A DNA stretch of 64,000 nt from Marsupella aquatica. Taxonomy: Eukaryota > Plantae > Marchantiophyta. The number at the start of each line of letters is the position of its first letter. Within the stretch, counting starts at the first letter, position 1. The position numbers and the translations under genes were made by a program. Shown here piece after piece: positions 600 through 30,971 of the stretch. A model generated the notes under the pieces. That model was not told where the DNA came from. It saw nothing but the letters and a program-made list of their open reading frames with translations, and made no database searches. The stretch is taken from positions 7,939,241 through 8,003,240 of the forward strand of contig OZ316899.1 of the NCBI GenBank assembly GCA_973895155.1, written 5' to 3'.

Positions 600-961
600 T
601 GTCATGCCGAGGGACAGTGCCGCTTGTGCACATCGGCATGTCCCTCGCATGCCCGCTAGGTATGGTTAGGGCTAGTGTACTACTTGAGTTAGTGTCATGT
701 TCTTGTAGCGAGTCTGGGCTGTTCTTGAAGCAAAAGAGGTTTGTTAGTGTGACGCCTGGACCCGGTCCTACTTAGGGCATGTTTTTCTTTGCCGTTCTTT
801 AGTTCTTCTTGAATCGCTGTGAGACAGAGTTTTTCAGAGGCTGCTCGTCGGTTCCGTACACGGAATTCACACAGTGATTCGTTAGATGCTCCCGGCCGAT
901 CTTGGCATCTCGCCGGTTTTCGATTCGATTTCAGTACGTTTGTTTCTATCACGCCTTTTAT
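600..961 (+). repeat. Repeat A1 (362 bp) of element A
   Basis: Matches 10095-10456 with two transitions seen by eye (T/C at 800, G/A in CCCGG/ACCGAT). Confidence 0.95.
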
Positions 962-974
962 TCAAGAAGAACTG
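960..974 (+). promoter_or_regulatory. Putative self-priming primer-binding site
   Basis: ATTCAAGAAGAACTG at the end of A1 is the reverse complement of (C)AGTTCTTCTTGAAT inside repeat A (801-814; 15/15 against A2); no TGG tRNA-type PBS is present. Confidence 0.75.
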
Positions 975-1291
975 CCGAGTTAGCGGTGAGGAGAAGAAGA
1001 TTGCTCGTGACGATTTTGACAATTTTTGGGTGAAGCCATTGCAATTTCCTTGACGAACATTGGAGCGACGGAATGAAAGTTATGGGTTTATGTTGTTATG
1101 TGTATACTTAAGTGTATACACATATCAATGCTCCCGAGGAGGTCTGGAGTTCATTTTCTGGTTGCATCCGCGACCCCTTTGCTTCTTCTTATTGTCACTG
1201 CCGCTTGCTGCCTCGACTGCTTTTGGGGGCCGTTTTCGCATTCCCGGCCACAGCTGCCGGCGAGTTTGCCTCGGCCGCAGCGAGACGCCTG

Positions 1292-2100
1292 CATAGGGCC
1301 GTGTGCCCTGGTTTCGACACGCTTCCACCCCGGCCTCCTCTTTACGTTTTCGCCTTTGAAGGCCCCGTTTTCTTCTTTTTTTCTCGACCTCCTCCGCTTT
1401 GGTGTGCAGGCTGTGCATAGGGCATCGTGCCCTTGCCTCGCCCATTTCTAAGCAGCCAGAGGAAGGGAAAGGAGCGCCAGGAGAGGGCACGAGGCCCTAG
1501 GCAACTTTAAAGCAGAGGGGGAGGGGAGTACATTCAACTCCCTCTCTCGGGAGTCCTGCCAAGCACGAGGCCCTAGGCAATCAATTAAAGCAGGGGGAGG
1601 GGGAGAAGCGCAAGGAGAGGAGGGCACGAGGCCCTATGGAGGATTAAAGAGGGGGGGTTACATTCGACTCCTTTCCCCTGGAGTCCTTCTGCCACTCTGC
1701 CACTCTGCCAGGCACACAAGCATTCATTAAAGCAGGAGAGGAGGGGGAGCGAGAGTGCCAGGAGAGGGCACGAGGCCCTAATAAGTAACATTAAGGAGGG
1801 GAGGGGGAGTTAGTCGCTCCCTTCTCTTCGGGAGCACATGAGGAGCCAGGAGGGGGCGCGAAGCCCTATGCAGGGCCCGAGCCATTGATTGAGACCCCTT
1901 TTCTTTTCGTTTTTGGTCGCTGCGCGACCTGCAGCGCCCATGTTTTTCCAAATCACAGTGGTTTGTGCATAGGCCCTGGTCTTAATTGGGGCCCCATTTC
2001 TTTTCTTTCGCTGCGCCCTCGCCTCGCTTCCTCGCTTCGCCGCGCTTTTTCCTCCTTAATTAAGTGCTCCGCAGCCTGTACGTACATAGGGTCTCGTCGC
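1292..2100. repeat. Dispersed ~15-bp motif (GGGCACGAGGCCCTA and reverse complement) in the long 5' leader of element A
   Basis: Forward copies near 1484, 1562, 1622, 1766, 1854; reverse-oriented degenerate copies near 1292, 1416, 2085. Confidence 0.7.
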
Positions 2101-2753
2101 TTTTCCCTTGTGCTTGCCAGTTTCTAGGTCCACAATGGGGCCCGATGTGTATACACTTAAGGGGGCCCATTTCACATTTTAGGGGCCCATTTTCCTCGGA
2201 TTCGGACATCAGGTCATCTGCATACGGCTGCGGGTCCCGTGTATACACATCTGACGGTCAATTTGGCATATACATCAGCAAACGCACAGGGGGCTAAATT
2301 TGCATTTTTAAGGGTACTTTTTCTCCGACGGTTTTTCGACGGTGACGGTTTTTCTGTGTGTTTACACATTCGACACATTTCTGCCTCGCATCGTTTGTTT
2401 CCTTTGTGGGTTTTATTTCCTAGCCTTGGGGCTGCCATTTCTTTTTCTTGTCAATTTCTTTCCCATTGGCACCCAGGTGAGCATGCAGCATGTCAGCCGA
2501 CGAGCCAGGAGGTAGCAGCACATCGCCACCGACACCCAGGTACCATTTACGGAGTGATCCACGACCATTGGTGCCAATTTCATTGGAGTCTCGGCAATTT
2601 TGACGACGTCCACAGACAGCAGCAGCACCCACACCACGCAATCCTTCTGCTCCATTTGGCGGTTGCTTCACCACTACTCCCAAGCCTGCTATCACTTCAT
2701 TGCCATTTACCCCTTCTGCATCCGTGGTTGTTCCTGCTTCACCGACATACAGC

Positions 2754-4292
2754 ATGGACGCCAGTCACTCATCTGGCCGCATTGAATGCTTCAGCGGGCG
2801 GCCAGGCACTGTTTCTTTGCGTGAGTTCAAATCCACTTTCTACACTGTTGTTTACGAATTGGAGTTGAAGTATGGCAGCAATTTCACAAATGCTTTTGCA
2901 TTTAAGCAGCTAGCCAGGTATGTGCACCACGAGGCTTTGGATGTGTATGAGCAGCACTCTCAACGGCTGCTTGCTGTCACACAATTGCCTAACCCTGCAT
3001 ATGCCACTGCAATTGCGGCTGCCTCACAACTGGCATTACAGAATGCCATTGCAGCCCATGCTGCTGCTCCTGCCACTTCCCCTCCTACTCCAGTTCCCAC
3101 CACTGCACCAGTTACTCCCACTGTCTTGGCACAGGCTACATCAGGCATTTCTCCCACCATTGATTCTCCTGCCTTTCCTGATCCAGTGGCTGAGTTTTTC
3201 CAGGTTCTTGAATTGCAATTCCCAATCAAGAGTGCTGATAAAATCATGCAGTTGGCCACCTTTGTGAGGCAACGCGATGAAACATTGAAGATGCTGTATC
3301 GCCGGCTTCTCAAGCTGAAGGAAGACACCCAAAGCATCATTGACCTGGAAGCTGCTCATCGCTATCTTCACGCATTGGAGGGCACACCAGCTCTCCATTC
3401 GCAAGTGTTGCAGCAAGTATTCTCAGAGTTTGGAGACAGCTACACCCTGCTCAATGTCTATGACACTGCTGAGAAACTTGAGTTGGCCCATGCACATTAT
3501 GAGGCCAGTATTGCGCGTCCACCGCGATCCAGGTACCAGGCTGCTGCCCCTACACTGGCCACCCCTTCCCGTGTGCCACAGTATGGTTCCAAGACCAAGC
3601 CAGCCCATGCTGCTCTCATGCTGCCATCTTGCAACTACTATGGTAAGCCCAATCACAAGGCTAATGAATGTGATATTGTTGCTGAGGACCTGTCTTGTGA
3701 TTTTTGCGAGAAAGTGGGCCACTTGGAGGCAGTTTGTTTTGCCAAATTCCCAGAGAGAAAGCAGCTACGATAGCAGGCCACTCATCCTGCTCCTGCTTCC
3801 ACTCCCCCACCAGCTAGGAGGGCTCCTACAGCATCCGTTGCTCCTCCTTCCAGTGACAAAGCATCCAGTGCTAACAAATTGCCCAAGCAGCAACAGAAGC
3901 AACCAGCTCAGAAGGAGGCTCACACAGCACAGGCAACTCAACTCCAGTCTCTGACTCATGAGGTTGAGTCATTACGTGCCCAACTTGCCAACATCAAAGG
4001 CAAGTCCACTGCCTCTGCTGGTCCTTCTCAACCGGCTGGTCACGTGCAACCCATCCCTGGCCCAGGCACCACTGACAGTTCAGCACCCCTACCCCGTTCT
4101 TTCTATGGCTTGCCATTTGATGCTCATATGGGTGAGTGTGTGCTGTCCTCTGCTACACAGCCTGGCCTTACAGCAGAATTTTCAGATTCATTCTGCCCTT
4201 CCTATTTTGCTTACCAGCAGGCCAGTGCTGCCTCCCGTATTGCTCCACACGCCGCATTGTACAAGCTGATGGTCTTGCTGCTGGTCCTATGA
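2754..4292 (+). pseudogene. gag: gag of element A, with an in-frame TAG at 3771-3773
   Basis: MDASHSSGRIECFSG start; two CCHC knuckles (CNYYGKPNHKANEC with C>Y, CDFCEKVGHLEAVC); ORF 3879-4292 is in the same frame after the stop. Confidence 0.85.
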
Positions 4293-5374
4293 CTAGAGCC
4301 AGGGGAGCTCGGGCTGTCATGCCCCAATCTTTTCAGCCACTCACACTTGCTGAAGAGCGCACCTTGTTGGCGAGGGGGGAGGGAGCTGCAGCTACATCCA
4401 TTCCACCACCAGGTGCTGCTGACATTTCACAGGGAGTTGTTTTTCCTGAGCTGCTTGAGCATTTCACCTCCGGTATGGCACAAAGGATTCTTACCACTTC
4501 ACTTTTCAGTTGCCATGATTTACAGCTGGATGCTAGAGCTGTCATCAGAGCGCTAGAGGGCTCACTGCATTCTTCATCAGCCCCTGTGACACCGGTTTTG
4601 GAGGTCCAATCTCATGTTAATACTGGACCTTCTTCTTCTCCATTGCATGCTTCCACTGGTTTGGCTATCCCAGTACCGATTTCCAGTGGTAGAGATGACA
4701 GTATTGCTGCAGATTGTGTGACCAGAGCTACACTTGATTCTGGTCATGCTGCTCCATCTTTCCTGGCTATGCTGTTGAGTGGGAAGACCGTGGACACTAA
4801 CTCCCTTCACAAGGTACCTCATCATTTGCCAAAAGTGGTGCCTAGTGACAGGACTTTAGTTTCCACCACCATTGCCATTGTTGACAACAGGAATTCAGCA
4901 GTCAAGTTGGAGGGTCACACTCCTCAGGTGGTCATGCTAGACACAAGTGCTCAACCAGTAATCTTGGGCATTCAGTTTGCCAAGAAGATGGGACTGCTGA
5001 CTGATCATTTACAGCCATCCAGGTGGCACATTCGGACTGCTAGTGGCACTGTGGAGGATGTGCTGGGTGAGAGTTCTACTTTACTCACTCTCACTTTTAA
5101 TGGAGGTACAGATCAGGAATTGCATTTCCCAGTCAGATGTTTGGTTACCAATGCCACTACGTATGATGTGCTCATTGGCCAGGAGGCTTTGTTCCCACCA
5201 GGTTTTACCATTGACAACTGGCATGAGCATGCATACTACAGAGTTGATTGGCATACGGATGGCTCACACTTGGGATACATTCCACTTGATTTGCATGGTG
5301 CCCATACCCCTATGGCTCACCACTGTGTGTTGAAAGCAGTGCACACAGCTACCTATGTCAACCACCCATTGTAG
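4250..5374 (+). pseudogene. Aspartic protease region of element A polyprotein
   Basis: VMLDTSAQP (DTG-like), IRTASG flap and YDVLIGQ motifs; frameshift near 4250; TAG 5372-5374 is in frame with ORF 5402. Confidence 0.8.
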
Positions 5375-5401
5375 GATTGGATTGAGGAGGATGAGGATGA
5401 G

Positions 5402-8400
5402 GTGGCTACTGCACATGCTGCTGCATGTGTAGCAGCACTTTCCAGCAACGTGGATCATCAACCAGAGGTGGTACAACGGCTCCAAGCAGCCCATGGACCT
5501 TTGGTGGCTGCATTGCACAAATTTGAGGACCTTGGGCAGCATCATGGACAACCAATAGCCCCAATCTTGAGCGCACCAGTTACATGGACTCCTCCTTCAG
5601 ATGGCCTTACATTGCTTGAGCTTTTTGGTGGCATTTCTACAGGCCTGGAAGCTCTCCTACAGTCTGGCATGGTGGTGAAGCAGTACATCTATGTGGATAT
5701 TGATCCAGGTGCAAGGCAAGTGGCTGAATCCCGTCTGCTGGAATTTTCAGAGCGATTTCCTCAGCAGTTTCCACACAATGCATGGAAGTCTGCATTTTCT
5801 TTCTTTCCTCCAGATATCCAGCTTGCCCAGCACCGGCACTTAACCCTTCTTGGCTCCCTTGATTTGATCATAGCTGGTTGGGAATGCCAAGGGTTTTCAG
5901 CTCCTGGTCACGGTGCTGGACTGCATGATTCTTGTTCTGGCCTTTTCACAGCATTGGTTCAGATTCTCACCTGGGCTCAATCCCTTTATCCTGCTGTTGG
6001 TTATATCATTGAGAATACTCCATCTCAGTTTGACCAGCGTCCACAAGTCAAAGAGGATTTCAGTGTGGTCCAGCACTACTTGGGACCACCCCTTCTCATT
6101 GATGCAGTGCACTGTGGTTCTTATGCACATCGTCTTCGTAACTTTTGGACTAACCTTGCACCACCTTCCTTGCTGGAGATGGCTCTTCACCACACATCCA
6201 GGGACACTAACCTTACAGTGGACCAGATTTTGGATCCTGACAGTTCTTGCCAACCAGTTACACGGCAAGAGCCAGCACCTTGGTATCCAGCTAATACCAT
6301 TGGACAACCCCGTGCTGCTTGGCCTACATTTGTGTCCTTTCCAGGTGCACATGCTTTTCAGGGTGATGGTCCTGGGCTGGTTTATCGACATTCTACCGGT
6401 ACATGGGATGAACCTAGTCCTGAGGAGAGAGAACGGGCTATGGGCTTCCAACCCGGTACTACAGGTCACACCAAAATCACCAGGCTGGCCAGGAATGCTT
6501 TACTTGGCAGGGTAATGGATCTCAATGCTCTCACTTGGCTTCTGGTCACTTGCATCCTTTTTCAGATGTACATTCCTCCAGCATTAGGAGCTCCAGCCTT
6601 ACCACTCCACAGTGCTGCTGCATGGCATCCAGACCAGGTGCACTTACCTCTGTCCAACACTCACCACTTCAGTCCAAGTGTTGGGGGGGAGGAGGTCCCT
6701 TGTAATGTGGCTGACATTATTTCTGAGTTTCATGGTGTGGATCAGACCAGAGCAACAGATACAGCAGGCCTTGGAGAGGCCTCATCACCTTATCAGCAGC
6801 ATGCTAGCAGCTTGGACAGTGGAGAGGCTGGCACTTCTGGCTCTTCAAGCACGAGTACATCAGGTCCTACTCCTAGTGTTGCCAACTACACATTTATCAT
6901 GGGCAACCACCTGAGTAAAAGACAGAAGGACCAGCTGCTGAATTTGCTCCTCAAGCATGAGAATGTGTTTGCTTTCTCTATGAAGGACTTGGGTAAGTGC
7001 AAGACTATGCAGTTCTCCATTGAGTTGGCTGATGAAACACCTATCTTCAGGCGGAGACACCGTTTGAGTAAGCATGAGTGGCAGCTGGTGGATGAGAGGT
7101 GCCAAGAGCTTTATGAAGCTGGTCTTATTCAACCATCTACATCAGATTTTGCGGCAGCTACAGTGATGCCAGCAAAGAAGGATTCCAGTGGATTGTGGAC
7201 AGAGAAGCGCATGTGTGGGGACTACAGGCCATTGAACCTGGTCACACCCCAGGACAGGTACCCCATGCCGCGGCCAGAGGAGCTATTTGACAGCATTGGA
7301 GACTCAGACATCTTCACTCTTGTGGATCTAAGGCAAGGCTTCAACCAGATTTTGCTGCTTGCAAAAGACCGCAAGAAAACAGCTTTCCATGGTAGTAACC
7401 AACTATGGGAGTGGTTGGTGATGCCATTTGGCTTGAAGAATGCGCCTATATTCTTTCAAAGAGTCATGGACCAGGTTCTTCAAGGTGCTGAGTTTCTGAA
7501 ATGCTACATTGATGATGTGTTGGTCCACAGCAAAGGATTTGACCAGCATCTACTTGACCTTGAGGAGCTATTCATGAGGCTTAAGAAGGTGAACCTAAAG
7601 ATACACCCCAAGAAGTGTGAATTTGCTGTCAGATCAGTAGTATACCTTGGGCACCGCATTCTTCCAAATGGAACCATGGCTCACTGGGCCAAGGTGGTAT
7701 CCATCTTGGAAATGCCCACTCCTACCGATGTTCACACTTTGAGGAGTTTTATTGGGTTGTGCAATTACTACCGGATCTACATCAAAGATTTCAGTACCAT
7801 TGCACACCCATTGTATGCTTTGTTGAAAAAGAATGTGACTTGGACATGGAGTACAGATGCTGAGGCAGCATTTGCCACTTTGAAGGAGAAGCTCTCAGAA
7901 TACCCGGTGCTGAGAAGACCTGATTTCAGCAAGGTCTTTGTGCTACACACAGATTGGAGTGCCCTTGGGATTGGTGCCATTCTGGGCCAGCATGATGAGG
8001 AAGGTAAAGAGTACGTCATTGCCTATGCATCCAGGAGCAACAATCAGGCAGAGAGTCATTATTCTTCTTATGAAGGTGAATGCCTTGCTGTTGTGTGGGC
8101 TGTCATACATTATAGGCCCTACCTCTATGGGACCAGGTTTGTTCTCTACACCGACCACCAGCCCTTGAAGTGGTTGATGACCAACGACAAGCTTACTGGC
8201 AAGCTTGCTCGTTGGGCGCTCATACTCCAGGAGTATGATTTTGAGGTAATTCATAGGCCTGGTGTGACACATCAGAATGCTGACACTATGTCCCGCAGCC
8301 CTTTGATTACCTCTGATGATTCCTCAGATGCACGGCAAGATTTTGACCAGGCTTCCATCCTGCCTACATTTCATGCATCGACCTATCTTGCTTTGCTGCC

Positions 8401-9877
8401 ATGCTATGTTGTTGACCAACCTGTGGTGGACATATGGGAGGACAGCGACACTCTGAGATTTTTGCAGCATGGGGAGTACCCCACACATGTTACTGCTGCC
8501 CAGAGAGACCGAATTCAGCAAAGGTCCAAGCGCTACTTGTGGAAGGGAGATCATCTCGTGCGTTGCTTGCCAGACAGGGAAGTGGTGGTTCCACCTATTC
8601 ATGAGAGGGTTGGCCTTATCCGTAAGGTACATTCTGAGCTTGGTCATTTTGGTGTTAAGAGGACTTACAGCCTCTTGGTCCCTCATTATCATTGGAGAGG
8701 CATGCATGGCCAGGTTCGAGATGTTATTGCCCGGTGTGAACAGTGTGATAGGGTGAGGACTTCCTTCACATCTCGACAACCCACACTTCATCCACTCCCT
8801 ATTCAGGGCATGTTTTATCGCTGGTCATGTGATTTGGCTGGAGAATTACCCCTCACGTCTCGGGGTAATCTCTACATCATGATCATGATAGAGCATTTCT
8901 CCAAGTGGATAGAACTTGTGGCATTGCCGGATAAGACCTCCCGTAGCACTAGCCAGGCATTCCTACAACAAGTTCTCAGCCGCTTTGGAGCTTGTGCAGA
9001 ATGTCTCACTGACCAGGGCTCAGAGTTTAGAGGAGAGTTCCAGGAGCTGCTTGATCAGGCCCTCATTGATCATCGCCGGACATCACGAGATCACCCACAG
9101 GCAGATGGCTTGGCAGAGCGCATGGTTCAGACATGCAAGAAGGGCCTCCGGAAGATCTGCCTCACCAAAAACAAGGAGGACTGGGACCTGGCCTTACCCT
9201 ACATTGCCATGGGGTATAGGATGTCCAGACATGCGTCATTGTCTAACTTTTCTCCCTACTTCTTGTTGTTTGGTCGTCACCCAGTTCCACCTTCTGCTAT
9301 TGCTGCTCACATGCTTCAGGTGGTGGACTTGGATTCAGCTGTGACTTGGTCTGATGTGATCTCTGAGAGGGCTGCCCTATTCAGGAGGGTTATGCCCATG
9401 GCCATGGAGAATTTGGCCATTGCACAGCACAGGGACACACTGCGTTATGCACACACACGAGGGGGCACTTTTCAGCCCAAGGTCAGGAAGTTTGATGTGG
9501 GAGATTTCGTGTACTTGCAGCGGCAAGCTAACGACACCCTGGACACCTCTACCAGTCGCACTATTCTCAGGGTCAAAGCTATTCGACCGTCTGGAGTGCT
9601 AGAGTTACAAGGGGCAGATGGGCGCACAATTGCTGACAATGCCAAGAATTGCGCCCCTTGTCATCTGCCTAACCTGGATCCCACCATTGTGACTTCTACT
9701 TGGATTCCACCTGTGGACTACCCTTGCAAAGTGTGTTTGCGAATTGATGATGCTGACCAGATGCTGCTGTGTGACAATTGCAATGGAGGGTACCATCTTT
9801 TCTGCCTTCGGCCTGAACTTACCCAGGTGCCAGAAGGGTTATGGTTTTGCCTTTCCTGTGCTCCACGTGCTATCTGA
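5402..9877 (+). CDS. pol: pol polyprotein: C5 DNA methyltransferase - RT - RNase H - DDE integrase - PHD finger
   Basis: RT: RMCGDYRPLN, MPFGLKNAP, YIDDVLV; RH: LHTDWS, YEGECLAVVW, YTDHQPL; INT: HSELGH..CEQC zinc finger, WSCDL, LTDQGSEF, DGLAERMVQ; uninterrupted 1491 aa. Confidence 0.95.
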   Translation: MATAHAAACVAALSSNVDHQPEVVQRLQAAHGPLVAALHKFEDLGQHHGQPIAPILSAPVTWTPPSDGLTLLELFGGISTGLEALLQSGMVVKQYIYVDIDPGARQVAESRLLEFSERFPQQFPHNAWKSAFSFFPPDIQLAQHRHLTLLGSLDLIIAGWECQGFSAPGHGAGLHDSCSGLFTALVQILTWAQSLYPAVGYIIENTPSQFDQRPQVKEDFSVVQHYLGPPLLIDAVHCGSYAHRLRNFWTNLAPPSLLEMALHHTSRDTNLTVDQILDPDSSCQPVTRQEPAPWYPANTIGQPRAAWPTFVSFPGAHAFQGDGPGLVYRHSTGTWDEPSPEERERAMGFQPGTTGHTKITRLARNALLGRVMDLNALTWLLVTCILFQMYIPPALGAPALPLHSAAAWHPDQVHLPLSNTHHFSPSVGGEEVPCNVADIISEFHGVDQTRATDTAGLGEASSPYQQHASSLDSGEAGTSGSSSTSTSGPTPSVANYTFIMGNHLSKRQKDQLLNLLLKHENVFAFSMKDLGKCKTMQFSIELADETPIFRRRHRLSKHEWQLVDERCQELYEAGLIQPSTSDFAAATVMPAKKDSSGLWTEKRMCGDYRPLNLVTPQDRYPMPRPEELFDSIGDSDIFTLVDLRQGFNQILLLAKDRKKTAFHGSNQLWEWLVMPFGLKNAPIFFQRVMDQVLQGAEFLKCYIDDVLVHSKGFDQHLLDLEELFMRLKKVNLKIHPKKCEFAVRSVVYLGHRILPNGTMAHWAKVVSILEMPTPTDVHTLRSFIGLCNYYRIYIKDFSTIAHPLYALLKKNVTWTWSTDAEAAFATLKEKLSEYPVLRRPDFSKVFVLHTDWSALGIGAILGQHDEEGKEYVIAYASRSNNQAESHYSSYEGECLAVVWAVIHYRPYLYGTRFVLYTDHQPLKWLMTNDKLTGKLARWALILQEYDFEVIHRPGVTHQNADTMSRSPLITSDDSSDARQDFDQASILPTFHASTYLALLPCYVVDQPVVDIWEDSDTLRFLQHGEYPTHVTAAQRDRIQQRSKRYLWKGDHLVRCLPDREVVVPPIHERVGLIRKVHSELGHFGVKRTYSLLVPHYHWRGMHGQVRDVIARCEQCDRVRTSFTSRQPTLHPLPIQGMFYRWSCDLAGELPLTSRGNLYIMIMIEHFSKWIELVALPDKTSRSTSQAFLQQVLSRFGACAECLTDQGSEFRGEFQELLDQALIDHRRTSRDHPQADGLAERMVQTCKKGLRKICLTKNKEDWDLALPYIAMGYRMSRHASLSNFSPYFLLFGRHPVPPSAIAAHMLQVVDLDSAVTWSDVISERAALFRRVMPMAMENLAIAQHRDTLRYAHTRGGTFQPKVRKFDVGDFVYLQRQANDTLDTSTSRTILRVKAIRPSGVLELQGADGRTIADNAKNCAPCHLPNLDPTIVTSTWIPPVDYPCKVCLRIDDADQMLLCDNCNGGYHLFCLRPELTQVPEGLWFCLSCAPRAI
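5603..6545 (+). other. DNMT3-like C5 cytosine methyltransferase domain inside pol
   Basis: Motifs in canonical order: I LELFGGIS, II YVDID, IV DLIIAGWECQGFS, VI YIIENT, VIII AHRLRNFWTNL, IX EERERAMGF, X RNALLGR. Confidence 0.92.
9724..9862 (+). other. PHD finger (C4HC3) at integrase C-terminus
   Basis: CKVC...LLCDNC..GYHLFCL.P.L..VPEG.WFCLSC. Confidence 0.93.
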
Positions 9878-9909
9878 CTTTTCTTCAGCCCTCCTTTTGG
9901 CTGTGGTCT

Positions 9910-9916
9910 GGGGGGG
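9910..9916 (+). promoter_or_regulatory. Putative polypurine tract of element A
   Basis: G7 run directly before repeat B1, about 30 nt after the pol stop. Confidence 0.65.
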
Positions 9917-10092
9917 ATACAGAGGTTTACACCTCCACTACGTACATACCACCTCAGTTGCTTTTTCTTGGCACCTGTGAATGTGATTGGACTTTTTCTA
10001 TGCATGTTGGTTGCTAGCAGCTTGCACATATGCATTGCCGGTGACTTGTATGTTTTCGATACACTATGGCTACGATACTATATGTCACGACA
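9917..10092 (+). repeat. Repeat B1 (176 bp) of element A
   Basis: ATACAGAGG...TGTCACGACA, no difference seen from 10457-10632. Confidence 0.95.
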
Positions 10093-10094
10093 GC

Positions 10095-10456
10095 TGTCAT
10101 GCCGAGGGACAGTGCCGCTTGTGCACATCGGCATGTCCCTCGCATGCCCGCTAGGTATGGTTAGGGCTAGTGTACTACTTGAGTTAGTGTCATGTTCTTG
10201 TAGCGAGTCTGGGCTGTTCTTGAAGCAAAAGAGGTTTGTTAGTGTGACGCCTGGACCCGGTCCTACTTAGGGCATGTTTTTCTTTGCCGTTCTTCAGTTC
10301 TTCTTGAATCGCTGTGAGACAGAGTTTTTCAGAGGCTGCTCGTCGGTTCCGTACACGGAATTCACACAGTGATTCGTTAGATGCTCCCGACCGATCTTGG
10401 CATCTCGCCGGTTTTCGATTCGATTTCAGTACGTTTGTTTCTATCACGCCTTTTAT
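10095..10456 (+). repeat. Repeat A2 (362 bp) of element A
   Basis: Direct copy of 600-961, separated from B1 by GC. Confidence 0.95.
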
Positions 10457-10632
10457 ATACAGAGGTTTACACCTCCACTACGTACATACCACCTCAGTTG
10501 CTTTTTCTTGGCACCTGTGAATGTGATTGGACTTTTTCTATGCATGTTGGTTGCTAGCAGCTTGCACATATGCATTGCCGGTGACTTGTATGTTTTCGAT
10601 ACACTATGGCTACGATACTATATGTCACGACA
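10457..10632 (+). repeat. Repeat B2 (176 bp) of element A
   Basis: Direct copy of 9917-10092 abutting A2 with no spacer. Confidence 0.95.
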
Positions 10633-11761
10633 ACGGGGGTTAGGGTGGTCAAAATTGGTAAAGGTAATGGTGAGTGCAAGCTGTGTCCTGGAACACTGGA
10701 GACTATTCCACACTTGTTCATGACCTGACAACATGCACAGCGCTGCTGGCAGCTCTATTCTCAAAGCTTTGAGGGCATAGTTGCGGATTATTCTGTGGGG
10801 TTGTGTGGGATGATAAATTTTACGGTGGATAAGGAATATAGGAAGGTAGTTAAAATGTGTCTTATACCAGATATTGTGCATGATATAGTTGGGACATAAT
10901 GAGCATATGTTCAAGCAGGGCGGGGCCCAGAGGTTTGATATTTGATTTGCTCTCAGAGGTGGTGGATCATGTCACTACGGTCGGGCTTACACTACCAACG
11001 AGTAACAGACGGACTAGGCTGCTGCGGGTGAAAGAGATTATAAATGAAGAGCGGCTCACATGGTTGAGGCGTTGGGACTGCTAGATCACATCAAGGTAGT
11101 GTAGGAAAGATTGAATGTGGGATAGTAGGCTGGCTAGGTGGATGGATTGTTGTAGGATAAGTCTGTTATGGTAGTCAGATTGGTCTCTTGTGCCTGATGG
11201 CTAGTAGGAATACATGCTACGGGTGCTGTTGGTAAGCCAATTGCATTTGAGTCACGGAACTTGACTACCTTAACACTTAGCTCCGGCGTCACTGACTCCG
11301 ACGCCGAGCTCCCTTATGGTCCAGGCCCGGATAGGCCATCCGGGGAGGACTTAGCATGGGGAGACTTGTGGGCAATGAGACGTGGCACTAGCGAGGCAAG
11401 GAGCCAAGCTAGGGACATACACTAAGGACTTGGACTAGCTGATAGCTGGTCGGGTCAAGGGGAAATGGGCCGGGCTCAAGGATGGCCATCCGGACCTCCG
11501 GATGGACTTTGAGTTCTGAGGGCTTGAGTGTGAGCTCCTCTTGGGCCCAAGGCCCATGGAGTTGATGCCATGGGCAACGGACGCTTGGGGCGCAAGTTAT
11601 GGCCCAATCCGGGTTGGGCCGGTCGAGGGGCCCAAGTAGCAATGAGACTTGAGGGCCTAGGCATGAGCACTGGGTCAGCCCGATCACAATGGGCTAAGGC
11701 ACTCCACTTGCAGATGCCTAACAAGAAAGGTATGGGCGTTGGCAGTTGGTGGTGCGCCCAT

Positions 11762-12573
11762 TGTCGTGCCAAAAGATTTCGGCTCAGGAATGGCTTTTAT
11801 AGGGGATGATGGGCGAGGCCTCTCGGTTGGGTTGCATGCATGCTGACTTGGAGGGGCTGCTTGGTTGGTTGGATTGAGGTTTGGTGATTGGGTGACTCAT
11901 CGTCACCAGGTTTAGTGTTTGGGTGAGTCACCAGGCTTGGAGTTTGGATGAGCCTCGCTGATGGCAGCTGGCTCAGGCTGGATGGTCGGGTTTCTGATGC
12001 TACTTAAGACTTGAGCCTTGGCTCATTGAGGTTGGCGGTTGTCTATTGAGATCTGTTGAGTTGCGTTCTGTGAGTTCCGCTCCGTTCTGCGGAACTCGAC
12101 TGCTGTGCAGCGGTTTTGGAGTTCTGGGCAAGTGTTGGATCCAGGTGTGGAGTTTTTGATCCAGGCGGGGATTTCTCAAGTTTGCAGTCTCGTCAATCCA
12201 GGCGAGGATTTCTCGAGTTTGGAGCCTCGTTGGACCAGGCCCGAGTTCCGTGTGAGCTATTTTAGACTAGTGGAGTAGCTAGTCGAGTTTTGGTTTTGTG
12301 AGCTAAGGAGGATAGTTTTTCCGTCAGATTTTTGAGTAGGTAGTCACTCGAGGAGTTCTACTCGACAAGTTAGAGGTAGCGGCCTGCCGTAGGGCCAGCT
12401 ATCAGACTCTTGCGGGCAAGCTTACTCGAGGGCACCTATTGTAACCTTTGTGAGAAAAGTAAAAAATATAAAAGAGTGAGAGTTTGCTCCGAAAAGTGCT
12501 TGTTGCCTGTCCCAATCACAGCCATAAACGCGCAATTTTCCCGAGGAGCCCCTAACTTTAAGTCCTCGCGACA
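11762..12573 (+). repeat. 5' LTR of element B (812 bp)
   Basis: Direct repeat of 18433-19279; contains ~35-bp GATCCAGGCG tandem units. Confidence 0.95.
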
Positions 12574-12574
12574 T

Positions 12575-12592
12575 TGGCGACCATACTGGGGA
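12575..12592 (+). promoter_or_regulatory. tRNA primer-binding site of element B (Arg-like, tentative)
   Basis: TGGCGACCATACTGGGGA one base after the LTR end. Confidence 0.75.
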
Positions 12593-12615
12593 TTCCTTGG
12601 GGCGATTGGATGAGA

Positions 12616-15600
12616 TGGATGACTATGACAAAGTTGATCGGATCTGGAGCATCGTCATGTCGATGATGAGAACCATAAGGAAGGAAGAGCTTGAGGCAGA
12701 AAGGGCGAATAGGGAAGCGAATAGAACTACTCGGTGTCTCCAAGAGGTTCTGAAGGAGAATGGGCAATTTGATGGGAGAAATGTGACAAGCTACCTTAAG
12801 TCTTACTTGACAGAAGCAGCTGTCTACAAGTTGGACGAAGGGACGGCGGTGAAAGAGTTCATGGTGCTGGTTGAGAAAGAGTTGAGTTTGACGGTGCGGA
12901 CCATCGTTGAGTCAACTGAGGGCTGGGATGACTTCGACCAGAAGATGAAAGAGGAGTTCCAAGCGGAGGATGTTGATTGGGTCACGCAGGCTACCTTCTT
13001 GGATTGGGTGAATGATAGGAACAAGAACCTGAAGGGGCCGCAAGAGCTCCTAAGGGAGTTCAAGAGAAGGGTGTCTCAGTTACCAAAGCGGGATGTGGGA
13101 ATCATAGAGTTGCAGCGCTCAATGCTCTTCTTGAGGGCAGCCGATGAGGACCTTTGAGAGGAGCTTGAGAACGCAATGGAGCTGCTGGAACCTTCGAGAG
13201 TTACCTTGTCTAACAACTGGAACCAAGTTGAGAAAGCGGTGTTGAAAGTGAGCAATCGACACCGGCGGCGAGAGCTAGACAAGGAGGCTACCACTCTCGA
13301 CCTAAGGCCGCCGGAACTGATATTGAGGAAAGGGAAGCGAGAACCAGTGAAGGATGAGATCAAACCATTGATGGATGATCTCTCGGAAATGATGCAGAAC
13401 CTGAAAATCTTGGCGGCACATGCGGTCGAGAATCCAAAACCGAGGGTTGCGAGTGCTCCCGAGAGGAAGCAAGAGATGCAGAGTTGGCCATGCATGTGCT
13501 GCCACAGCAAAGAGCATGACAAACGGGAGTGCTTGGACCTGAGGGAAGCTGCGGATAAAGGGTTGATCAAGTTCATTGGTGAAGTTGGTCAGAAAAAGAT
13601 ATCGTTTGCCAATGCTGAAGAGTCGATTCCATTCAACTCCAACAAGGGAGGCATGAAGGATTTGGCTGAGAAGCGAGTCAAAGAGGCGTCCTCTTCACAC
13701 CCGGAAGCGAATGTTTACAATGTGGAGTTGGATGGCCCCGTGACGGAAACGGACAAGTTTTACAAGCGCTTGGCGGATCTGGTGCGAGAGAGATCCGGAT
13801 GGAGTGACCCGGTGCTGATCAATGCGATAACGGTTGAGGTTGGGGCTAGTTGGGATGCCTCGGTCGAGTCAAAAAGGAAGAAAACCGACAAGGATGACAC
13901 TCCGTCTCAATCAAGGGAACGAGAGAGGCGGGATACTTGAGACAAGGAGAGAAGGGTTAGGTTTGAAGAAGAGGAAATGAGCAAGAAAGAGCCGGAGAAA
14001 GGGAAACCGAACAGGAAGGACCCAGGCTGGGTGCTTGGCAGGGATGTGGACCAGGCCATGTACCCGGAGGTTGTAGCTGAGAAGTTTTGGAGCCAATTGG
14101 CTCAAGGGTTTACCAATGCTGAGTTCTTTGGCAGTATGAGGCGGGAGATCCAGGAAGCAATCTTGGAGAGATCCAAGAGGAAACAGATTTACAAAGAGGG
14201 CCCTCACACCTTGGCGGGGGAGGATGGCGAGATGGAAATTGGGAGTTTCTGAACTTACACTGCTGGGGCGTCCATGGGTTCAGGTAGTAAGCTTGCTGGC
14301 CCCGAAGAGTCAGACTTGGAGAAACCAAAGAGGGTCAAGTCCCTTGAAGAGGAGCTCGTGAACTTGGACGATGAGTCCTTCGAGGCGGAAGAGGAGCTCA
14401 TGGGAACCAGAAGCAAAGCTGAGTCTATGGCAAACAGGGACCCGACTAAAGGGGAAGAATGAGAAAGCATTACTGCGCTGTCAAGGACCATTCATGTCAT
14501 GGGCTCAATGAAAGGAAACAGTTATGCTTACCGAGATGGATACTGGGCTCGAGCAAGTCCGGAGAGTGAGTGCCAGTTGGAAGGAATGGAAGGCAAGGTG
14601 CGGGCGCTCATTGATACTGGCTTGGAGATCAACTTGATGGATCCAAAGGTGTTTCAAAAGGGGAATTGGCCGGTGGATAATGAGTTGCTTTGGAGTGTGA
14701 ACTCGGTGAGTTCAACGAAGGACTATCTTTGGGGCGGATATCCAAATGTGATGGTGAAGTTCGGGAATGTCAAGCAGGCTTGTAACATTTTTGTTCATGA
14801 GCACTTGTCGTTTCCGGTGATACTGGGCATGCCGTTCATCACTGAATGGAGGATGGAGACGAAGGTTCTGGATGATACTACCTTCATGGTGAAGGTTCGG
14901 AGCAAAGATGGGAAAGAGGTGGTTCAATTTCTGGTTGTTTTACCTGGAAACGAGAGGAATAGGAAAGGGTTGAGGACTGAGAGTGCCGATGCTGGTCTAG
15001 GTCCGGAAAACAACTTGGCACTTCGCTGAAAAGAGTGGATCGGCGGAGTGCTCGTTCCTTAGCTCCTTGTGAAGGGGAAACACTATGGATAATGGGGAGG
15101 AAGAGCCACTCAAATGTGCGGAGTCTAACTTGGGAAGGGACAAGCTGGAGAAGGAGTTGGAAAGGCAGTACTTGTCTATGGCCGTGCTTGTATACTCAAG
15201 TACCAAATACAAGACGGTTGACAAGAAGGTGAGGCCGGCGGCGATACCTTTGCCGGACGATGCGATGGAGGTTATGGATCGAGCGAGATTGGAACCAAGG
15301 CTGAGGCCAACTGATCGGATAGGGCATAAGTTTACTCAAGAGAGTTTGGCAAAGCTTAAGATTGGTTCGGATGGGTTACTTACAGAGGTGGAGCAAGTGG
15401 CATTTCAAAAGATGATAATGGAGCATGGCAAGGCATTCTCATTTTTGATTGAGGAGATTGGTTGTGCGGATCCGAGTAAGGTGACGCCAATGGTCATCTT
15501 TACTGTCCCTCATGTTCCGTGGGATCTGAAACCAATTTTGGTTCCACGGGCTTTAGCTCCGAAGCTTGCAGAATTGCTTAAGGAGAAGTTGAGTGCTAGG

Positions 15601-18293
15601 ATTCTCGAGAGGTCTGATGCTCCCTACTCGAACAAATGGTTTACAATGAGAAAGAAGAATGGAAGCTTGAGGTTCATTTAGGATATGCAACCTCCAAACA
15701 AGGTGACCATAAGGAATATGGGAGTTGGGCCACTCGTGGATGAGTTTGCAGAAGAGTTCGCTGGGAGGGCGATCTACTCCATGGGTGATTTGTTTTTGGG
15801 TTACGACCAGTTCCAGTTGGCGCAAGAGAGCCGAGATATTACGACTATGAGGACCCCGCTAGGCCTCTTGAGGATGTGCACTCTTCCTCAAGGGGCGACG
15901 AACTCAGTACCGCACGTGCAAAATGTGATGAGTAAAATCTTGGAGTCGTTCATTCTGGAAAAACCGAGACCATTCATTGATGATGTCCCGATAAAGGGGT
16001 GCTTGGTTGAAGGGAAGGATGAGACCATGAGGAGTGATGGGATCCGACAGTTTGTTGTGGGATCACATTGCTGATGTTAAGGCAGTTCTTGAGAAGCTGA
16101 TTGATGTGGGAGTCACTCTTTTGGGGGAGAAGTCTGAATTCGGGATGAAAGAGGTGAAAGTCTTTGGGCAAATGTGCGGATCTTATGGAAGGAAGCCGAA
16201 CATGGATAAGGTGAGAGCTATTAGCGAGATGATGGATTGCAAATTGGTGCCGGAAGTTTGGAGGTTTATGGGTGCTTGTGTCTTTTACAAGATCTGGATC
16301 CCTCACTTCTCGCACCTGGCGGACCCGCTCTATGAGCTGTTGAGGAAAAAGGTTAAGTGGAGATGGCTACCCAAGCATAGTGAAGCAATGGCTAAGCTTA
16401 AGAGCGCTCTCATGAGCCCGCCAGTTCTCCGAGCTGTGGACTATGAGAGCGGGCAACCACTGATCATGATTGTTGATGCGAGTCTGTTTGCAGCCGGGTG
16501 GGCTGTTGGGCAAGATGACGAGAATGGGGACAGGTATGCGATCAGATTTGGGGCAATTTTTTTTACAAAAAGGCAAAGGAGATATGCTCAAGTTAAGAGG
16601 AGCTTTGGGGTGCCAAAGTGGCACTCCATCAGGAGAGGAACTATTTGATTGGGGCACCGGTGGTGGTTGAGATTGATTGCCAATTGCTGCTGGGGATGAT
16701 TGCGAATTGTGACACGCCTGACATAGCAATGCTCAGGTGGATTGCTTTCATTTGGATGTTCAACCCTGAGCTAAGTCACATTGCAGGAAAGGATAATCCG
16801 GTTGCCGACATGCTGTCAAGGGCAAGATTTGGAAATGAGGTAGTAACGAGAGTTGGCAAGGTGACTGGAACCGAAAGTGTTGGAAGTCTAGAGTTCAAGG
16901 AAGAACTCTACTCGGGAGAGTTGCTGGATATTGGGCGTTATATTAGCACTTTGGAGAAGCAACCAGAGTGGAGTTACCAGGAGTTTGTCAAGATCCGAAA
17001 GAGATCTTACAAGTTCCTATTGAGGGAGGGCTACTTGTGGCGAAGGCATAAGGACCCAAATCAGTTGTTGCAGAGGTTGTGGATACTAAGGATGAGAAAG
17101 ACCGAATTCTCAAAGAGTGCCATGATGCTGACATGGATGGGCACAAAGGGGTGCATTTGACTTACGAGAGGGTTCGGAAGCTGTACTGGTGGCCAGGTTT
17201 ATACTTGGCCGTTCGAGACTATGTCGAGACTTGCGAGATTTGCCAGTTTTACTCGAGGATCCGACATGGGGATGGATTGGTTCCAACTTACCCCGTGGCT
17301 CTACACTTTCAATGGGCTGTTGATGTGGTGTACATGCCGAGAGAGAGCAATGGGGCGAGATACTTGGTTTTGGTGAGAGAAGACTTGTCTTCTTATGTGG
17401 AAGGGAGAGCGTTGGTTTCGAACACTATTGCTGCCGTTTGCCAGTTCATACTTGAGGATATCATTGCAAGGCATGGGTGCTTTACAAGGATCAGAGCTGG
17501 TAGGGGGGATCTCAGCTCCAAGGAAGCGCAAGAGTTTTTTGACCAATACCGCATCAAACTGAAGCTGACTTCAAGTTACAATCCGGAAGGCAATGGGAAA
17601 TCTGAAAGGGGGCACATCCAGATTGTGAGCGCTTTGGCTAAGGCTTGTGATGGGGACTTGGGCAGGTGGTCAATTCTCCTTCCACTTGCTCTGTTAGCGG
17701 ATCGGATGACTTGTAGCTCAGTGACCGGATACGTTCCGACTGAGCTACTTGCTGGGCACTTGCCAATGATGCCACTCGAGGAAGATGTTTGCAGCTGGCG
17801 ACTGATTGGATGGAATGATGAAGTTTCAAGAGAGGAGTTGCTGGCTCGAAGGATCGAACACTTCAACTTGTTACCCGCAAAGACTGAGGTGGCTCGGAAG
17901 CAATTGAAGATGGCAAGGTTAAGGAACAAGGGCAGGTTCGACAGGACTCATCGGTTGAGGCCTGTCTTGGTTAAGGATTGGGTTCTGGTTTACAAAAGTA
18001 AGTTGGACGAGCAACACTTGAGCCGAAACAAGTTTTCTAGGAGGTGGCAAGGTCCGTATGTGGTGGTTGTTATTCATGCAAATGCGACCTACACTATTCG
18101 GGAGTTGGATGGAACAGTTCACCAAGTACCTTACGCAGGGAAAAGGGTGAAGATCTTCAAGAGGAGGACCAAGAAAGGAATGGACTCAAGTTCTGACTTG
18201 AGTGAATTTGAAGATGAGGCACTGGTCCAGGCGCATCCGTTAGACTTGAGTTTCAAAAGTGGCTTGACTGGTTCTTATACGGATGGTTCCTAA
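12616..18293 (+). pseudogene. gag-pol of element B, broken by several stops and frameshifts
   Basis: FDGRNVTSYL gag start, CMCCHSKEHDKREC knuckle, ALIDTG protease, LPQGATNS/FIDDVPI RT, IVDAS RNase H, H..H..CEIC and NGKSERGH integrase, RRWQGPY. Confidence 0.92.
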
Positions 18294-18432
18294 GGCCGAG
18301 TCTGAAGGCTTTGGGTTTGAGTTTCTTGAGGAGGAAGTGGTCCAGGCGCATGGCTCGAGTTTGGACTCAGACTTAGAGGAAATCTGATGGATTGGAGCAG
18401 ACTGGAGGCTGCTAAGGTTTACTGGGGGAGGA

Positions 18433-19279
18433 TGTCGTGCCGAAAGATTTCGGCTCAGGAATGGCTTTTATAGGGGATGATGGGCGAGGCCTCTCGGTTG
18501 GGTTGCGTGCATGCTGACTTGGAGGGGCTGCTTGGTTGGTTGGATTGAGGTTTGGTGATTGGGTGACTCGTCGTCACCAGGTTTGGTGTTTAGGTGAGTC
18601 ACAAGGCTTGGAGTTTGGATGAGCCTCGCTGATGGCAGCTGGCTCAGGCTGGATGGTTGGGTTTCTGATGCTACTTAAGACTTGAGCCTGAGCTCATTGA
18701 GATTGGCGGTTGTCTATTAAGATCTGTTGAGCTGCGTTCTGTGAGTTCCGCTCCGTTCTACGGAACTCGACTGCTGTGCGGTGGTTTTGGAGTTCTGGGC
18801 AAGTGTTGGATCCAGGTGTGGAGTTTTCAATCCAGGCAGGGATTTCTCAAGTTTGGAGTCTCATTGATCTAGGCGGCGATTTCTCAAGTTTGGAGTCTCG
18901 TCGATCCAGGCGAGAATTTCTTGAGTTTGGAGCCTCGTTGGTCCAGGCCCGAGTTCCGTGTGAGTTGTTTTAGACTAGTGGAGTAGCTAGTCGAGTTTTG
19001 GTTTTGTGAGCTAAGGAGGATAGTTTTTCTGTCAGATTTTTGAGTAGTTAGTCACTCGAGGAGTTCTACTCGACAACTTAGAGGTAGCGGCCCGCCGTAG
19101 GGCCAGCTACTAGACTCTTGCGGGCAAGCTTACTTGAGGGCACCTATTGTAACCTTTGTGAGAAAAGTAAAAAATATAAAGGAGTGAGAGTCTGCTCCGA
19201 AAAGTGCTTGTCGCCTGTCCCAATCGCAGCCATAAACGCGTAGTTTGCCCGAGGAGCCTAACTTTAAGTCCTTATGACA
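18433..19279 (+). repeat. 3' LTR of element B (847 bp)
   Basis: Direct repeat of the 5' LTR with one more ~35-bp unit. Confidence 0.95.
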
Positions 19280-22200
19280 CCGTTATGCGCGATAGGATCC
19301 GGGTTGGGGGCCAAATGTTTAGGGACCAATGCTTGTCCGGGGGTGGTAGGTCTCCAGAAGCATATACGAGGGGAGTGGTGTCTCCTTGGGGGCTAAAGGC
19401 AAGCCGAAGTCGTGAGCTAGCCGCGGCGGTCGTGACACTAAGGGAAATCGCCAAACGGAAATGGCGATATCTTCCCAACGGGAAGTCTGTTGGAGGACTT
19501 CTTAGGTGCATTGGAAAGCTCTCAACTGAGCTCAGCTGGGTCTGGGGGCGCCATGGGTTCTCATGGTTTGCGGGTGTTATCTTGCCCGCTTGCCAAATCC
19601 TGCCGAACAGCAACCAAGCCGTGTTCAGTCTCCCAAGGGAGCTTGCGTTGGGGAGGCAAGGCCAAGTAGGGGAGCTTGCGTTGGGGAGGCAAGGCCAAGT
19701 AGGGGTGGAGGCTGAGTTCCAAGGGTGCTTGGCCCCTAGACCATCAAAGAGGTGAACCGGGAGTGGTTGCTAGAGTCAAGGCCATTCTGGTCCCAGCGTG
19801 TTGGGACAAGCTTGGGACAAGCTTTAGGACAAGCTACGCTAATTAGGCCATGAGCATCTCCTGAGGTCAGGGCGGTCAGTTGGTGATGGATAGGTACGAG
19901 GGGGAACTTGGGCCGTGCCCAAGGAAGGAGCTATTTTGGACAAATAGTGGGCGTGGGTTCTGGTTCCGGCTTATGGCATCGGGAGGACCTATCGCTGACC
20001 TATTTACCGTCTGTTGAGCTTAAATAGGATGCTAGACTTGGCGAGTTCTAGATCCTGAAGGGTTACTTACCGAGGTACTTGGTTGCTTGTGCAGATAGGG
20101 AGGACCGTTGAGTAGCGGTCGTGTTAGAGAGCAAGTGCGACCTCGTATGGGAGGGGCTGTTGGCGGTGCAAGGGGCACTAGTTTACTTGCTCGAGGTATT
20201 CCGTGGAGGCGTTCGGGCACCAGGGGCACTTGGGTGTGAGTGCTGGGATTGGTGAGGGCGCTGGGTGGCGAGGTCCACCACTATTTGTGTGTGCTGGTGT
20301 TGGCTACGATTTGCAGTGCTGGATATGGTGGTTGCTTTTCTGTTTGTTTCCCCCGGCCATGGGGTTTGCGTGGCCCCGTAAAATAATAAAAATTCTAAAA
20401 TGTTTAAAGGAAAACAAGGCGGGCCAGGCATATGGCGGTCGTGAGCCGGGCACGGTCGAGGGTCGCAAAGGGGGAAATACACGGCAACCGACGACTGAAG
20501 GGCCAGGCACGAGACTAAGTGCGTAGAGGGGCAGGCAGTCGGGGGCAGCCAAAGCCATGAAGCGGCTATTGGCAAGAGGCAGGGCACACAAAAGGGAGGG
20601 CGCGGGGTAACGCCGGCGAGAGGGGGAGGGAGAGGGAGAGAAAAGGGCCAGGGTGTGCGCCGGCTGGCGCTGTGCAGACAACCAAGGTCGCGGCTACGAC
20701 CAACAATAGGGGGAGGGGAGGGAGTCGGTAGGAGGGCGGGGCCAGGTAGAACTTGTGTTTGTATACACACAAGGAGTGATTTAAACCCCTTTAAAACCAA
20801 AAATTTGCACCAACAAAGAAATTGGTTGGGTTACTCACAAAGCGACTCTCGTTTACACGAGAAAAAATGACAACTGCCAACAAGAAATGTTGTCAAATTT
20901 CACCAGCACACTCTACAAGCTCAGCAAAGGAAAAAATTCTGTTGCGTCGCACTCTCTCCGCGTCAAGTACCAATCCCAGACTCAAAATGATCACTTCGCC
21001 GTGATCTCTCCTGTAATTAGGTGATTATTCTATAAAAAAAAGTTAAAGTATCAAAATCATAAATTTTTAAATTTTTAAAGTTTTTATAAGACCCTTTAAG
21101 AAAATTTAAGTTAGTATAAGCTCAAATGGGTAAGGATACCATTGGAAGACGTCAAGGCTACGTACTCTGGTTTTCACATATTAGACGTCAAGACGGCAAG
21201 AAGTTGAAAGGAGCTTCAAAAATGAGGTGACGTCCTGGGCGGCCTCCTTGCAGGGATGGCAGGGACGGCCTCCTCACGAAGACGGCAAAGACGGCGCCGG
21301 CTTGGATGGCTTCTACACAGGGACGGCCGGGATGGCACCCATTTTTTGCCAAGGACGGCCGACTCCTTCCGATCCGGCCCGCATGAAAAACTCAAGGATG
21401 TCTTGGACGGCCTCCACATAGGGACGTCCGGGACGTCCACCCCGCCACAACCTTATGTGAAGTCCGCGCCGGCCCAAACCTTGTTCTCCATTTTTCTTTG
21501 AGGGACATCCATGGCGGCCGGCAGTAGGGCGCGAGCTTCAACCCTCAGTGCTCACTCGATGGACCACCATTTGAGCTCATTTCAATTGCTATAGGAGCGC
21601 AGCTGCCTAGAGAATGTTCACCCCGATTTTGAACTGCTATTGATGAGACGTTGAGGAGTATTGGGTCATCGATGCTCTCTGATTTCTTGGAATTGAAGAA
21701 ATTGCAATTTTGAGAGCTTCGCCTGATCAGAGCTCCTTCATTTCTATCTCTTTTCAGTTCATTCCTTCTCCCATAGTAGCGCAGCTACCTTAGATCCTTG
21801 AGATTTCATTCTTGAGTGTCACGTCGTCGGCTGCGGCCTTAACTCAGACTTCAGCTTAGACGGGCACATCCCTCGTAAATCTGAGGGTTCGAGCAAGAAG
21901 GGAAGCACGTAATGCACCTTATTCTCATAAACTAGCGCTAAGTGCGCATACTGCTAAATACAGACACCTCCTAGGTATGGTTTGTGTTCCACCGCCGGAA
22001 TGTACCTTAGTCGATAGCAGGATCGACCCCGGCTTAAGGGCTTCTAAGCCTTCATGCTGTCCGCCTTCGATCCGGATTCGATGATACAGGTCCTCAACCC
22101 GTGCTCGCAACCACTTACCCGCAGGCTGCACCCTGTGCACGTCTCGGGTAGTGCGTTCGGCCTGGCGCTGCCACCCATATACGAGAAACCCACACACATA

Positions 22201-30933: not shown

Positions 30934-30971
30934 AGCTTGTGAGGACACGACGCAGTTTGGGGGGAGACCTA

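Follow-up and report, generated by a model that had tools for sequence, protein, structure and literature searches.

An internal CA-gc-TG junction in a Ty3/Gypsy element of non-canonical LTR layout as a predicted site of staggered integrase cutting

We analyzed a 64-kb window of Marsupella aquatica DNA (64,000 nucleotides), which contains a Ty3/Gypsy element of 10,033 bp at positions 600 to 10632. A CA-gc-TG junction within its terminal repeats contains, arranged head to tail, the two insertion ends of the family, and the element's own DDE integrase probably nicks it after CA on each strand and joins both ends to the target. Judged from the sequence, this staggered cut is the likeliest reading. 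The wider proposal stands at about even chances: a green-lineage Ty3/Gypsy clade may have moved its attachment (att) sites into U3, with an integrase that acts as a site-specific double-strand endonuclease and an end-joined, circle-like cDNA that is obligatory.

The first-pass annotation had described the B1/A2 boundary as CACGACA-GC-TGTCATG with a perfect 10-bp palindrome, and reading the positions directly in the window confirmed both statements. Positions 10086 to 10101 are CACGACAGCTGTCATG, and the palindrome GACAGCTGTC occupies 10089 to 10098, with symmetry ending at 10 bp. The further description, right and left element ends placed head to tail around a 2-bp spacer that is missing outside, was equally borne out. 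With the element boundary marked by a slash, the left outer end reads ...CACGG/TGTCATG and the right outer end ...CACGACA/ACGGG. The element starts with TG, finishes with CA, and lacks at both outer ends the GC spacer (10093 to 10094), the predicted source of both 5' overhangs. The sequence ACGG at 596 to 599 is duplicated at 10633 to 10636, representing a 4-bp TSD. The palindrome results from a 4-bp terminal inverted repeat, TGTC..GACA, combined with a self-complementary spacer. Perfect 10-bp palindromes number 69 in the window, which puts a palindrome by itself at chance level, and it was rejected as evidence when taken alone. Above chance are the place of the junction exactly between both element ends and its conservation among relatives. 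By these features of the sequence it is a genuine conserved element component, predicted to serve as a head-to-tail attachment junction within the LTR.

The element has the layout A-body-B-gc-A-B, with all directional features on the plus strand. Its A repeats (A1, 600 to 961, starting TGTCATG; A2, 10095 to 10456) match at 360 of 362 positions, and its B repeats (B1, 9917 to 10092, ending CACGACA; B2, 10457 to 10632, forming the right element end with CA) are identical (176/176). A1 would correspond to distal U3, R, and U5 of the 5' LTR and B1 to proximal U3. The long 5' leader carries a 38-nt motif four times at 1483 to 1801. It is followed by a region at 2604 to 4292, called gag-like from its position, which has an in-frame stop at 3771 to 3773 and a weak zinc finger as its sole Pfam match. 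An aspartyl protease frame (4136 to 5374; PF13975, E 6e-6) is out of the gag frame and ends in a stop before pol. In this copy, stops and a frameshift interrupt both the gag and the protease region. The pol frame (5375 to 9877; 1500 codons) is open and encodes a DNMT3-like domain, RT, RNase H, an H2C2 and DDE integrase, and a PHD. The sequence around the insertion site (494 to 599 and 10637 to 10760) resembles an interrupted LINE zinc-finger coding region (zf-RVT); the zf-RVT profile matched the right flank weakly (E 0.039) and the left flank not at all.

Several other repeats were noted in the window. An ordinary Gypsy element at 11762 to 19279 has LTRs of about 810 to 850 bp, a PPT directly followed by TG, a tRNA-type PBS (CA/TGG), and an integrase at 17052 to 18293; it begins with TGTCGTG, which on the opposite strand reads as the B end of the 600 to 10632 element. 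A solo LTR of the family of this ordinary Gypsy element lies at 39468 to 40318. The 4-bp flanks of these two insertions (CCAT/CCGT and ACGC/ACGC, respectively) fit the NCGN preference that the accessible part of the literature describes for Phygy. The same preference, suggested by ACGG, was considered for the 600 to 10632 element and rejected, as the TSDs of its relatives do not bear it out. A MITE-like element at 30971 to 31734 has 175-nt inverted ends at 97%, with a related partial copy at 21012 to 21657. A further repeat family is found in both orientations (11250 to 11762, 19280 to 20283, 34853 to 36176, and 38458 to 40809) and the ordinary Gypsy element and the solo LTR both appear to interrupt it.

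The Pol order of protease, RT, RNase H, and integrase is that of Ty3/Gypsy (Metaviridae), with the DNMT3-like domain between protease and RT. The integrase has a DDE core with an HHCC domain and matched the integrases of Ty3 (E 2e-20) and PFV (E 2e-16), with the D, D, and E catalytic residues aligned. In all 15 rows listed out of 16, the distance from the second D to E is 35 residues, with one gap relative to Ty3 and PFV; this spacing, one shorter than that of PFV, is possibly a mark of the clade. No tyrosine recombinase was found in 22 other frames of the element or in 2 long frames of a distant relative (locus L085). There was also no chromodomain match in the element, a PHD being present instead. 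The TG..CA termini and 4-bp TSD fit Ty3/Gypsy elements (TSD of 4 to 6 bp), and the TSD is contrary to DIRS/Ngaro/PAT elements, which have none. The canonical LTR layout is absent: the PPT is followed by ATAC.. and not by TG, and the att pair lies inside B-gc-A. We therefore regard it as an element with Gypsy enzymes and a non-canonical LTR layout.

For the DNMT3-like domain (5585 to 6574), the best PDB matches were to DNMT3A (E 4.5e-7), and PF00145 was matched as well. The window carries GWEC as the catalytic motif of this domain; among 24 relatives, 20 have GWEC and 4 have GWPC. The domain precedes RT in the window and in L085, and lies between RNase H and integrase in most relatives. The same domain set was found in relatives from many metagenomes and from Monoraphidium, and the DNMT part also matches Marchantia proteins. 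A quick RT tree, which held no named KnitGypsy sequence, grouped the window element with 21 relatives, nearly all of them DNMT bearing and including Monoraphidium P0008 (SH-aLRT 99).

Both ends of reverse transcription can be predicted. A G7 run at 9910 to 9916, in the same position in relatives, is the predicted PPT and abuts B1. No tRNA-type (TGG) PBS follows A1; instead, positions 960 to 974 are complementary to positions 801 to 814 over 14 nt (960 to 973), and over 15 nt to the A2 copy at 10295 to 10309. We predict a self-priming-type PBS at 962 to 974 and a self-primer, likely the RNA 5' end, at 801 to 814. The primer/PBS pair is TCAAGAAGAACT with AGTTCTTCTTGA in the window and TCTAGAAAAACT with AGTTTTTCTAGA in close relatives. 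Two more matched pairs were found in L085 and L049, giving concerted change across three lineages with a complement of 12 to 15 nt. The helix is present in both MFE and centroid folds, the whole region scoring no better than shuffles (z -1.07). A 12-bp hairpin, CTTGACTTGACA-N4-TGTCAAGTCAAG, in L085 (7228 to 7255), L086, and L049 shares sequence with the predicted self-primer, so that its formation could compete with the pairing of primer and PBS. From these boundaries we infer that the repeat enclosed by PPT and PBS is B-gc-A, with ends AT..AT and the TG/CA pair inside, which would place the attachment site within U3. Of the 66 loci in which B could be aligned, not one has TG directly 3' of the PPT.

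Contigs of the window family left the element at the bases predicted. In runs X1, X2, and X6, at least 17, 9, and 8 contigs, respectively, exit exactly behind position 10092 into unlike flanks, and at least 10, 5, and 3 exit exactly before position 10095. A few breakpoints among the rows listed fall at 10090, 10094, or 10095 instead. Run X1 may be the source sample of the window DNA, and run X5 had no coverage of the junction. No spacer indels were listed for the three runs, the sole change being G to A at 10093 in 4%, 7%, and 0% of the depth.

Related loci were taken as the best 80 of 520 in a metagenome scan. Seven stop before the end of the integrase and seven have no alignable B, leaving 66 loci, or 61 after removal of 5 duplicates. 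The B-A-B order is present in 28 of them, and 33 end at the first B, without A2-B2. When 0 to 6 nt were permitted, spacer length was 2 nt in all 28 non-duplicate relatives. Its sequence was AC in 10, AT in 7, GC in 5, GT in 3, GA in 2, and AA in 1. Conservation of the spacer, proposed earlier as a check, was found for its length, and GC itself was kept in 5 of 28 members of this one related subfamily; varying spacer sequence, which the first-pass annotation had named as refuting, is thus formally present. AC, GT, and AT are the expected products of methylcytosine decay of GC, and B1/B2 pairs have decayed at 22% of CHG sites. At the first spacer base, however, A occurs in 18 of the 28 relatives, more than decay at essential CA/TG positions would suggest (12 of 56; P 2e-4), and for this reason the palindrome centre is probably dispensable. 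Spacer length looks fixed, and spacer sequence is probably free. Clustering of spacer states was examined on a tree of the 28 copies (8 changes versus 8.4 when shuffled), which was star-like, with two long-branch rows, and uninformative on inheritance. A variable spacer weakens the need for palindromy there and not the cut, since the spacer would become a discarded overhang. Such tolerance nevertheless speaks against our model by analogy with PFV, for which the accessible text reports that a broken palindrome abolished junction cutting (PMC1180852).

These family data also bear on the reading that an ordinary LTR element underwent a single rearrangement or autointegrated and that its palindrome is due to chance. 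Palindromes of 10 bp are indeed common in the window, as counted above. The reading is refuted, and we give it practically no credence: the layout is common to 28 independent relatives and the distant L086, contigs of three runs show many copies with identical end points, and the PPT is never directly followed by TG (0/66).

In 17 complete relatives with clean ends, the TSD was 4 bp and exact in 8 and had at most one mismatch in 14; mismatched pairs gave 0.7% and 9%, respectively. Excluded from this count were L007, which has no TSD; L059, whose start is eroded; L078, whose end has decayed (ATAT/ATAT by eye); and the duplicate L062. A TSD is missing or poor in L028, L044, L069, and L007, which counts against the cut proposed here. 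Some other copies deviate in structure. Right ends lie 15 bases early, at the first of two tandem CACGACA-ending units, in L023, L026, L027, L045, L048, L059, and L069, reflecting either slippage deletion or an alternative end. The internal B1 of L008 and L035 has one unit. L060 contains, on the minus strand at about 6060 to 6530, a solo A-B unit that resembles an ordinary solo LTR and has nearly duplicated flanks (AAGT/AAAT). A2 of L013 (about 2480 to 2550) is shortened to about 76 bases and fused to B, and the A start of L061 (about 2615 to 2710) is partly duplicated at the left end.

The A2/B2 join (AT/AT; 10455 to 10458) differs from the junction in its variability. Among 27 readable copies it was precise in 9, had a substitution in 1, and carried indels in 17, with fuzzy anchors and classes assigned partly by eye. 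Located in the same way, the A1/PBS boundary lay at a single distance in 17 of 18 resolved copies (2 of 20 were unresolved). Because indels are frequent at the former and the latter is constant, A2/B2 is read as the site of joined cDNA ends. It behaves like a newly made join, and the CA-NN-TG junction behaves like templated sequence. Templated-looking duplications of the A end were found at A2/B2 in L029, L036, L063, and L066.

This variability bears on a Ngaro/PAT-like replication, in which the RNA would run from A1 to B2 and the split repeats would template a circle, the layout being unrelated to an LTR cycle. In its favor, YR elements with split direct repeats have this layout, a likeness that the figure legend on KnitGypsy-Dnmt3 also states (PMC5890265). 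We consider this very improbable, as the predicted PPT and self-priming PBS bound B-gc-A exactly, A2/B2 differs from copy to copy and is not inherited, and the element has a 4-bp TSD, a DDE integrase, and no YR match.

According to the model that we favor, self-primed reverse transcription would produce a linear cDNA that carries B-gc-A repeats and has no attachment sites at its own ends. The cDNA ends would be joined, most simply as a 2-LTR circle, creating A2/B2. The integrase would open the junction adjoining the PBS, yielding two CA-3'OH ends, each with a 2-nt 5'-GC overhang, as retroviral ends have after processing. Insertion at 4-bp spacing, with the overhangs removed, would leave the observed structure without the spacer. 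With full promoter-R-U5 on the left and full U3-R on the right, this product would be able to replicate again. The observed structure follows exactly if the cDNA ends are joined and the PBS-side junction is used. A double nick after CA that gives two CA-OH ends with 2-nt GC overhangs in one step had been proposed in the first-pass annotation. Its geometry was right, and the cut itself is a prediction; what it implied at sequence level held, namely, a fixed 2-nt spacer, CA/TG ends, loss of the spacer, a 4-bp TSD, an intact DDE integrase, and no tyrosine recombinase match in the frames searched.

Since two junctions of this kind are present in a symmetric 2-LTR circle, a mirror form, A-B-gc-A-body-B, would be predicted, and its absence argues against the model. 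It was found in none of the 20 relatives with a visible left end, 9 of which are full A-body-B-A-B and 11 A-body-B; at 0.5 each, 0 of 9 has a probability of 0.5^9, or about 0.002. The absence would be explicable if the same internal staggered cut were made on linear cDNA, with no free circle, and the left LTR became double stranded first. Host end-joining or an RT template jump would then connect the loose ends, either while integration proceeds or once it is complete. The product would be the same, including an imprecise A2/B2 with duplications of the kind seen in the four loci named above. We nevertheless think this route unlikely: it leaves a chromosome break to repair, yet TSDs are mostly kept.

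A-body-B copies retain the TSD, and the share of relatives without A2-B2 (33 of 61) counts against the favored model. Under that model these copies would be dead ends, formed through a 1-LTR intermediate or when both junctions are cut; they may also be B1xB2 recombinants or assembly collapses. Their age did not differ from that of full copies by CpG count (32 versus 26 loci; P 0.33), a weak test. The number of these copies and their equal age would suit a scheme without a double nick, in which RT, while displacing a strand, halts at the junction or slightly beyond it and the integrase only trims flaps as in ordinary 3' processing. Such a scheme would also accommodate non-palindromic spacers, the lack of mirror forms, and the location of some right ends at an upstream copy of the end motif. 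It offers no reason for a fixed spacing, however, and the strict 2 nt in 28 of 28 relatives, kept in distant lineages, suggests that one complex reads both ends; we judge it improbable.

More distant loci, with integrases 41 to 54% identical, extend the pattern. GACA-G[CT]-TGTC was found downstream of the integrase in 6 of 9, with 0.004 to 0.02 occurrences expected in each, and the three loci without it offer only 166 to 511 bases downstream of the integrase. A G-run lies about 55 to 240 bases upstream of the motif in all six. L085, L086, and L049 are mutually related, so the six loci represent about four lineages. L086 has the B-A-B order, with B2 ending in CA without GC; in L083, L084, and L089, the position of the motif suggests an att role. 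GACA-GA-TGTC in L087, L088, and L001 was left uncounted; in L087 and L001 it falls within coding sequence with no PPT before it. Neither the circular assembly of L085 nor the order B-gc-A-PBS, seen in L085 and L049, was accepted as proof of real circles, as repeat collapse gives the same result. A scan of viral contigs returned 2 distant Gypsy loci, in which the layout is absent. Loci L083 to L089 are eukaryote-type retrotransposons of the clade within prokaryotic genome bins, probably through binning contamination.

Since the 1980s it has been disputed whether a closed end-to-end junction can serve retroviral-type integrases as a substrate for integration, with both sides reviewed in the accessible part of PMC1180852. 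The clade looks like a natural system built on such integration, and the question is reduced to an oligonucleotide assay. If the model is true, a DDE element has converged on the split-repeat layout of tyrosine-recombinase retrotransposons. Under the wider proposal, the productive intermediate would be circle-like cDNA, which leads nowhere in other LTR elements. Pipelines that demand two full TG..CA LTRs, as described in part in PMC6317226, would miss or mis-cut a high-copy family of this kind. In the open literature searched, including accessible parts of PMC6317226, PMC12440569, and bioRxiv 10.64898/2026.05.21.726589, with subscription papers and Repbase reports outside the scope, we found no account of an LTR retrotransposon that integrates through an internal junction; the portion of the Troyka paper that was available has nothing on the A-body-B-A-B layout. 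Practical uses are conceivable for an integrase able to open covalently closed donors and insert them.

IS3 and IS30 circle junctions present abutted ends to a DDE enzyme, with a short spacer that comes from the donor flank and is remade in each cycle; in the present element, the spacer appears to be inherited. The analogy with IS3 drawn earlier is thus loose, as the junction here appears templated inside the LTR and the newly made join, which had gone unmentioned, would be A2/B2. In Tf1/sushi and Tcn1 elements the LTRs are ordinary and TG..CA lies at the ends of the cDNA, unlike the present element. Ngaro and PAT tyrosine-recombinase retrotransposons integrate at a B/A junction, as is predicted here. 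They share the A-coding-B-A-B layout (PMC5890265, in part), whereas the present element has a DDE integrase, 4-bp TSD, predicted PPT and PBS, and no YR match. With Tf1/sushi and Tcn1 it has in common a DDE integrase and, as predicted, a PPT and a PBS complementary to its own 5' LTR rather than to a tRNA (accessible parts of PMC4600332 and PMC6317226). A close likeness is in KnitGypsy-Dnmt3 of Klebsormidium nitens, described in a 2018 figure legend as combining DIRS-like repeats with Gypsy domains (de Mendoza et al., PMC5890265). It likewise has Gypsy domains, a Dnmt3-like domain inside Pol, and A-body-B-A-B repeats. The comparison is by description only, as the accessible text and supplements give no junction sequence, TSD, priming mode, or mechanism. 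The layout was thus already drawn in 2018, and the mechanism was not found in print. Regarding junction cutting, titles cited in PMC1180852 describe MLV circle junctions and internal att sites as poor substrates, a point against the model. In vitro, according to the accessible account, PFV integrase nicks a palindromic CA-AT-TG junction 3' of CA on each strand, so that 5'-AT overhangs remain (Delelis et al. 2005, PMC1180852). The PFV 2-LTR circle junction and the present one are alike in the geometry of the cut site after CA, the 2-nt 5' overhang, and the loss of two nucleotides on integration; the cut and the overhang are predicted here. They differ in origin and frequency: the PFV junction arises from joined cDNA ends and is a minority form, whereas the one described here would be templated in U3, with joined ends at A2/B2, and would be used by every inserted copy examined.
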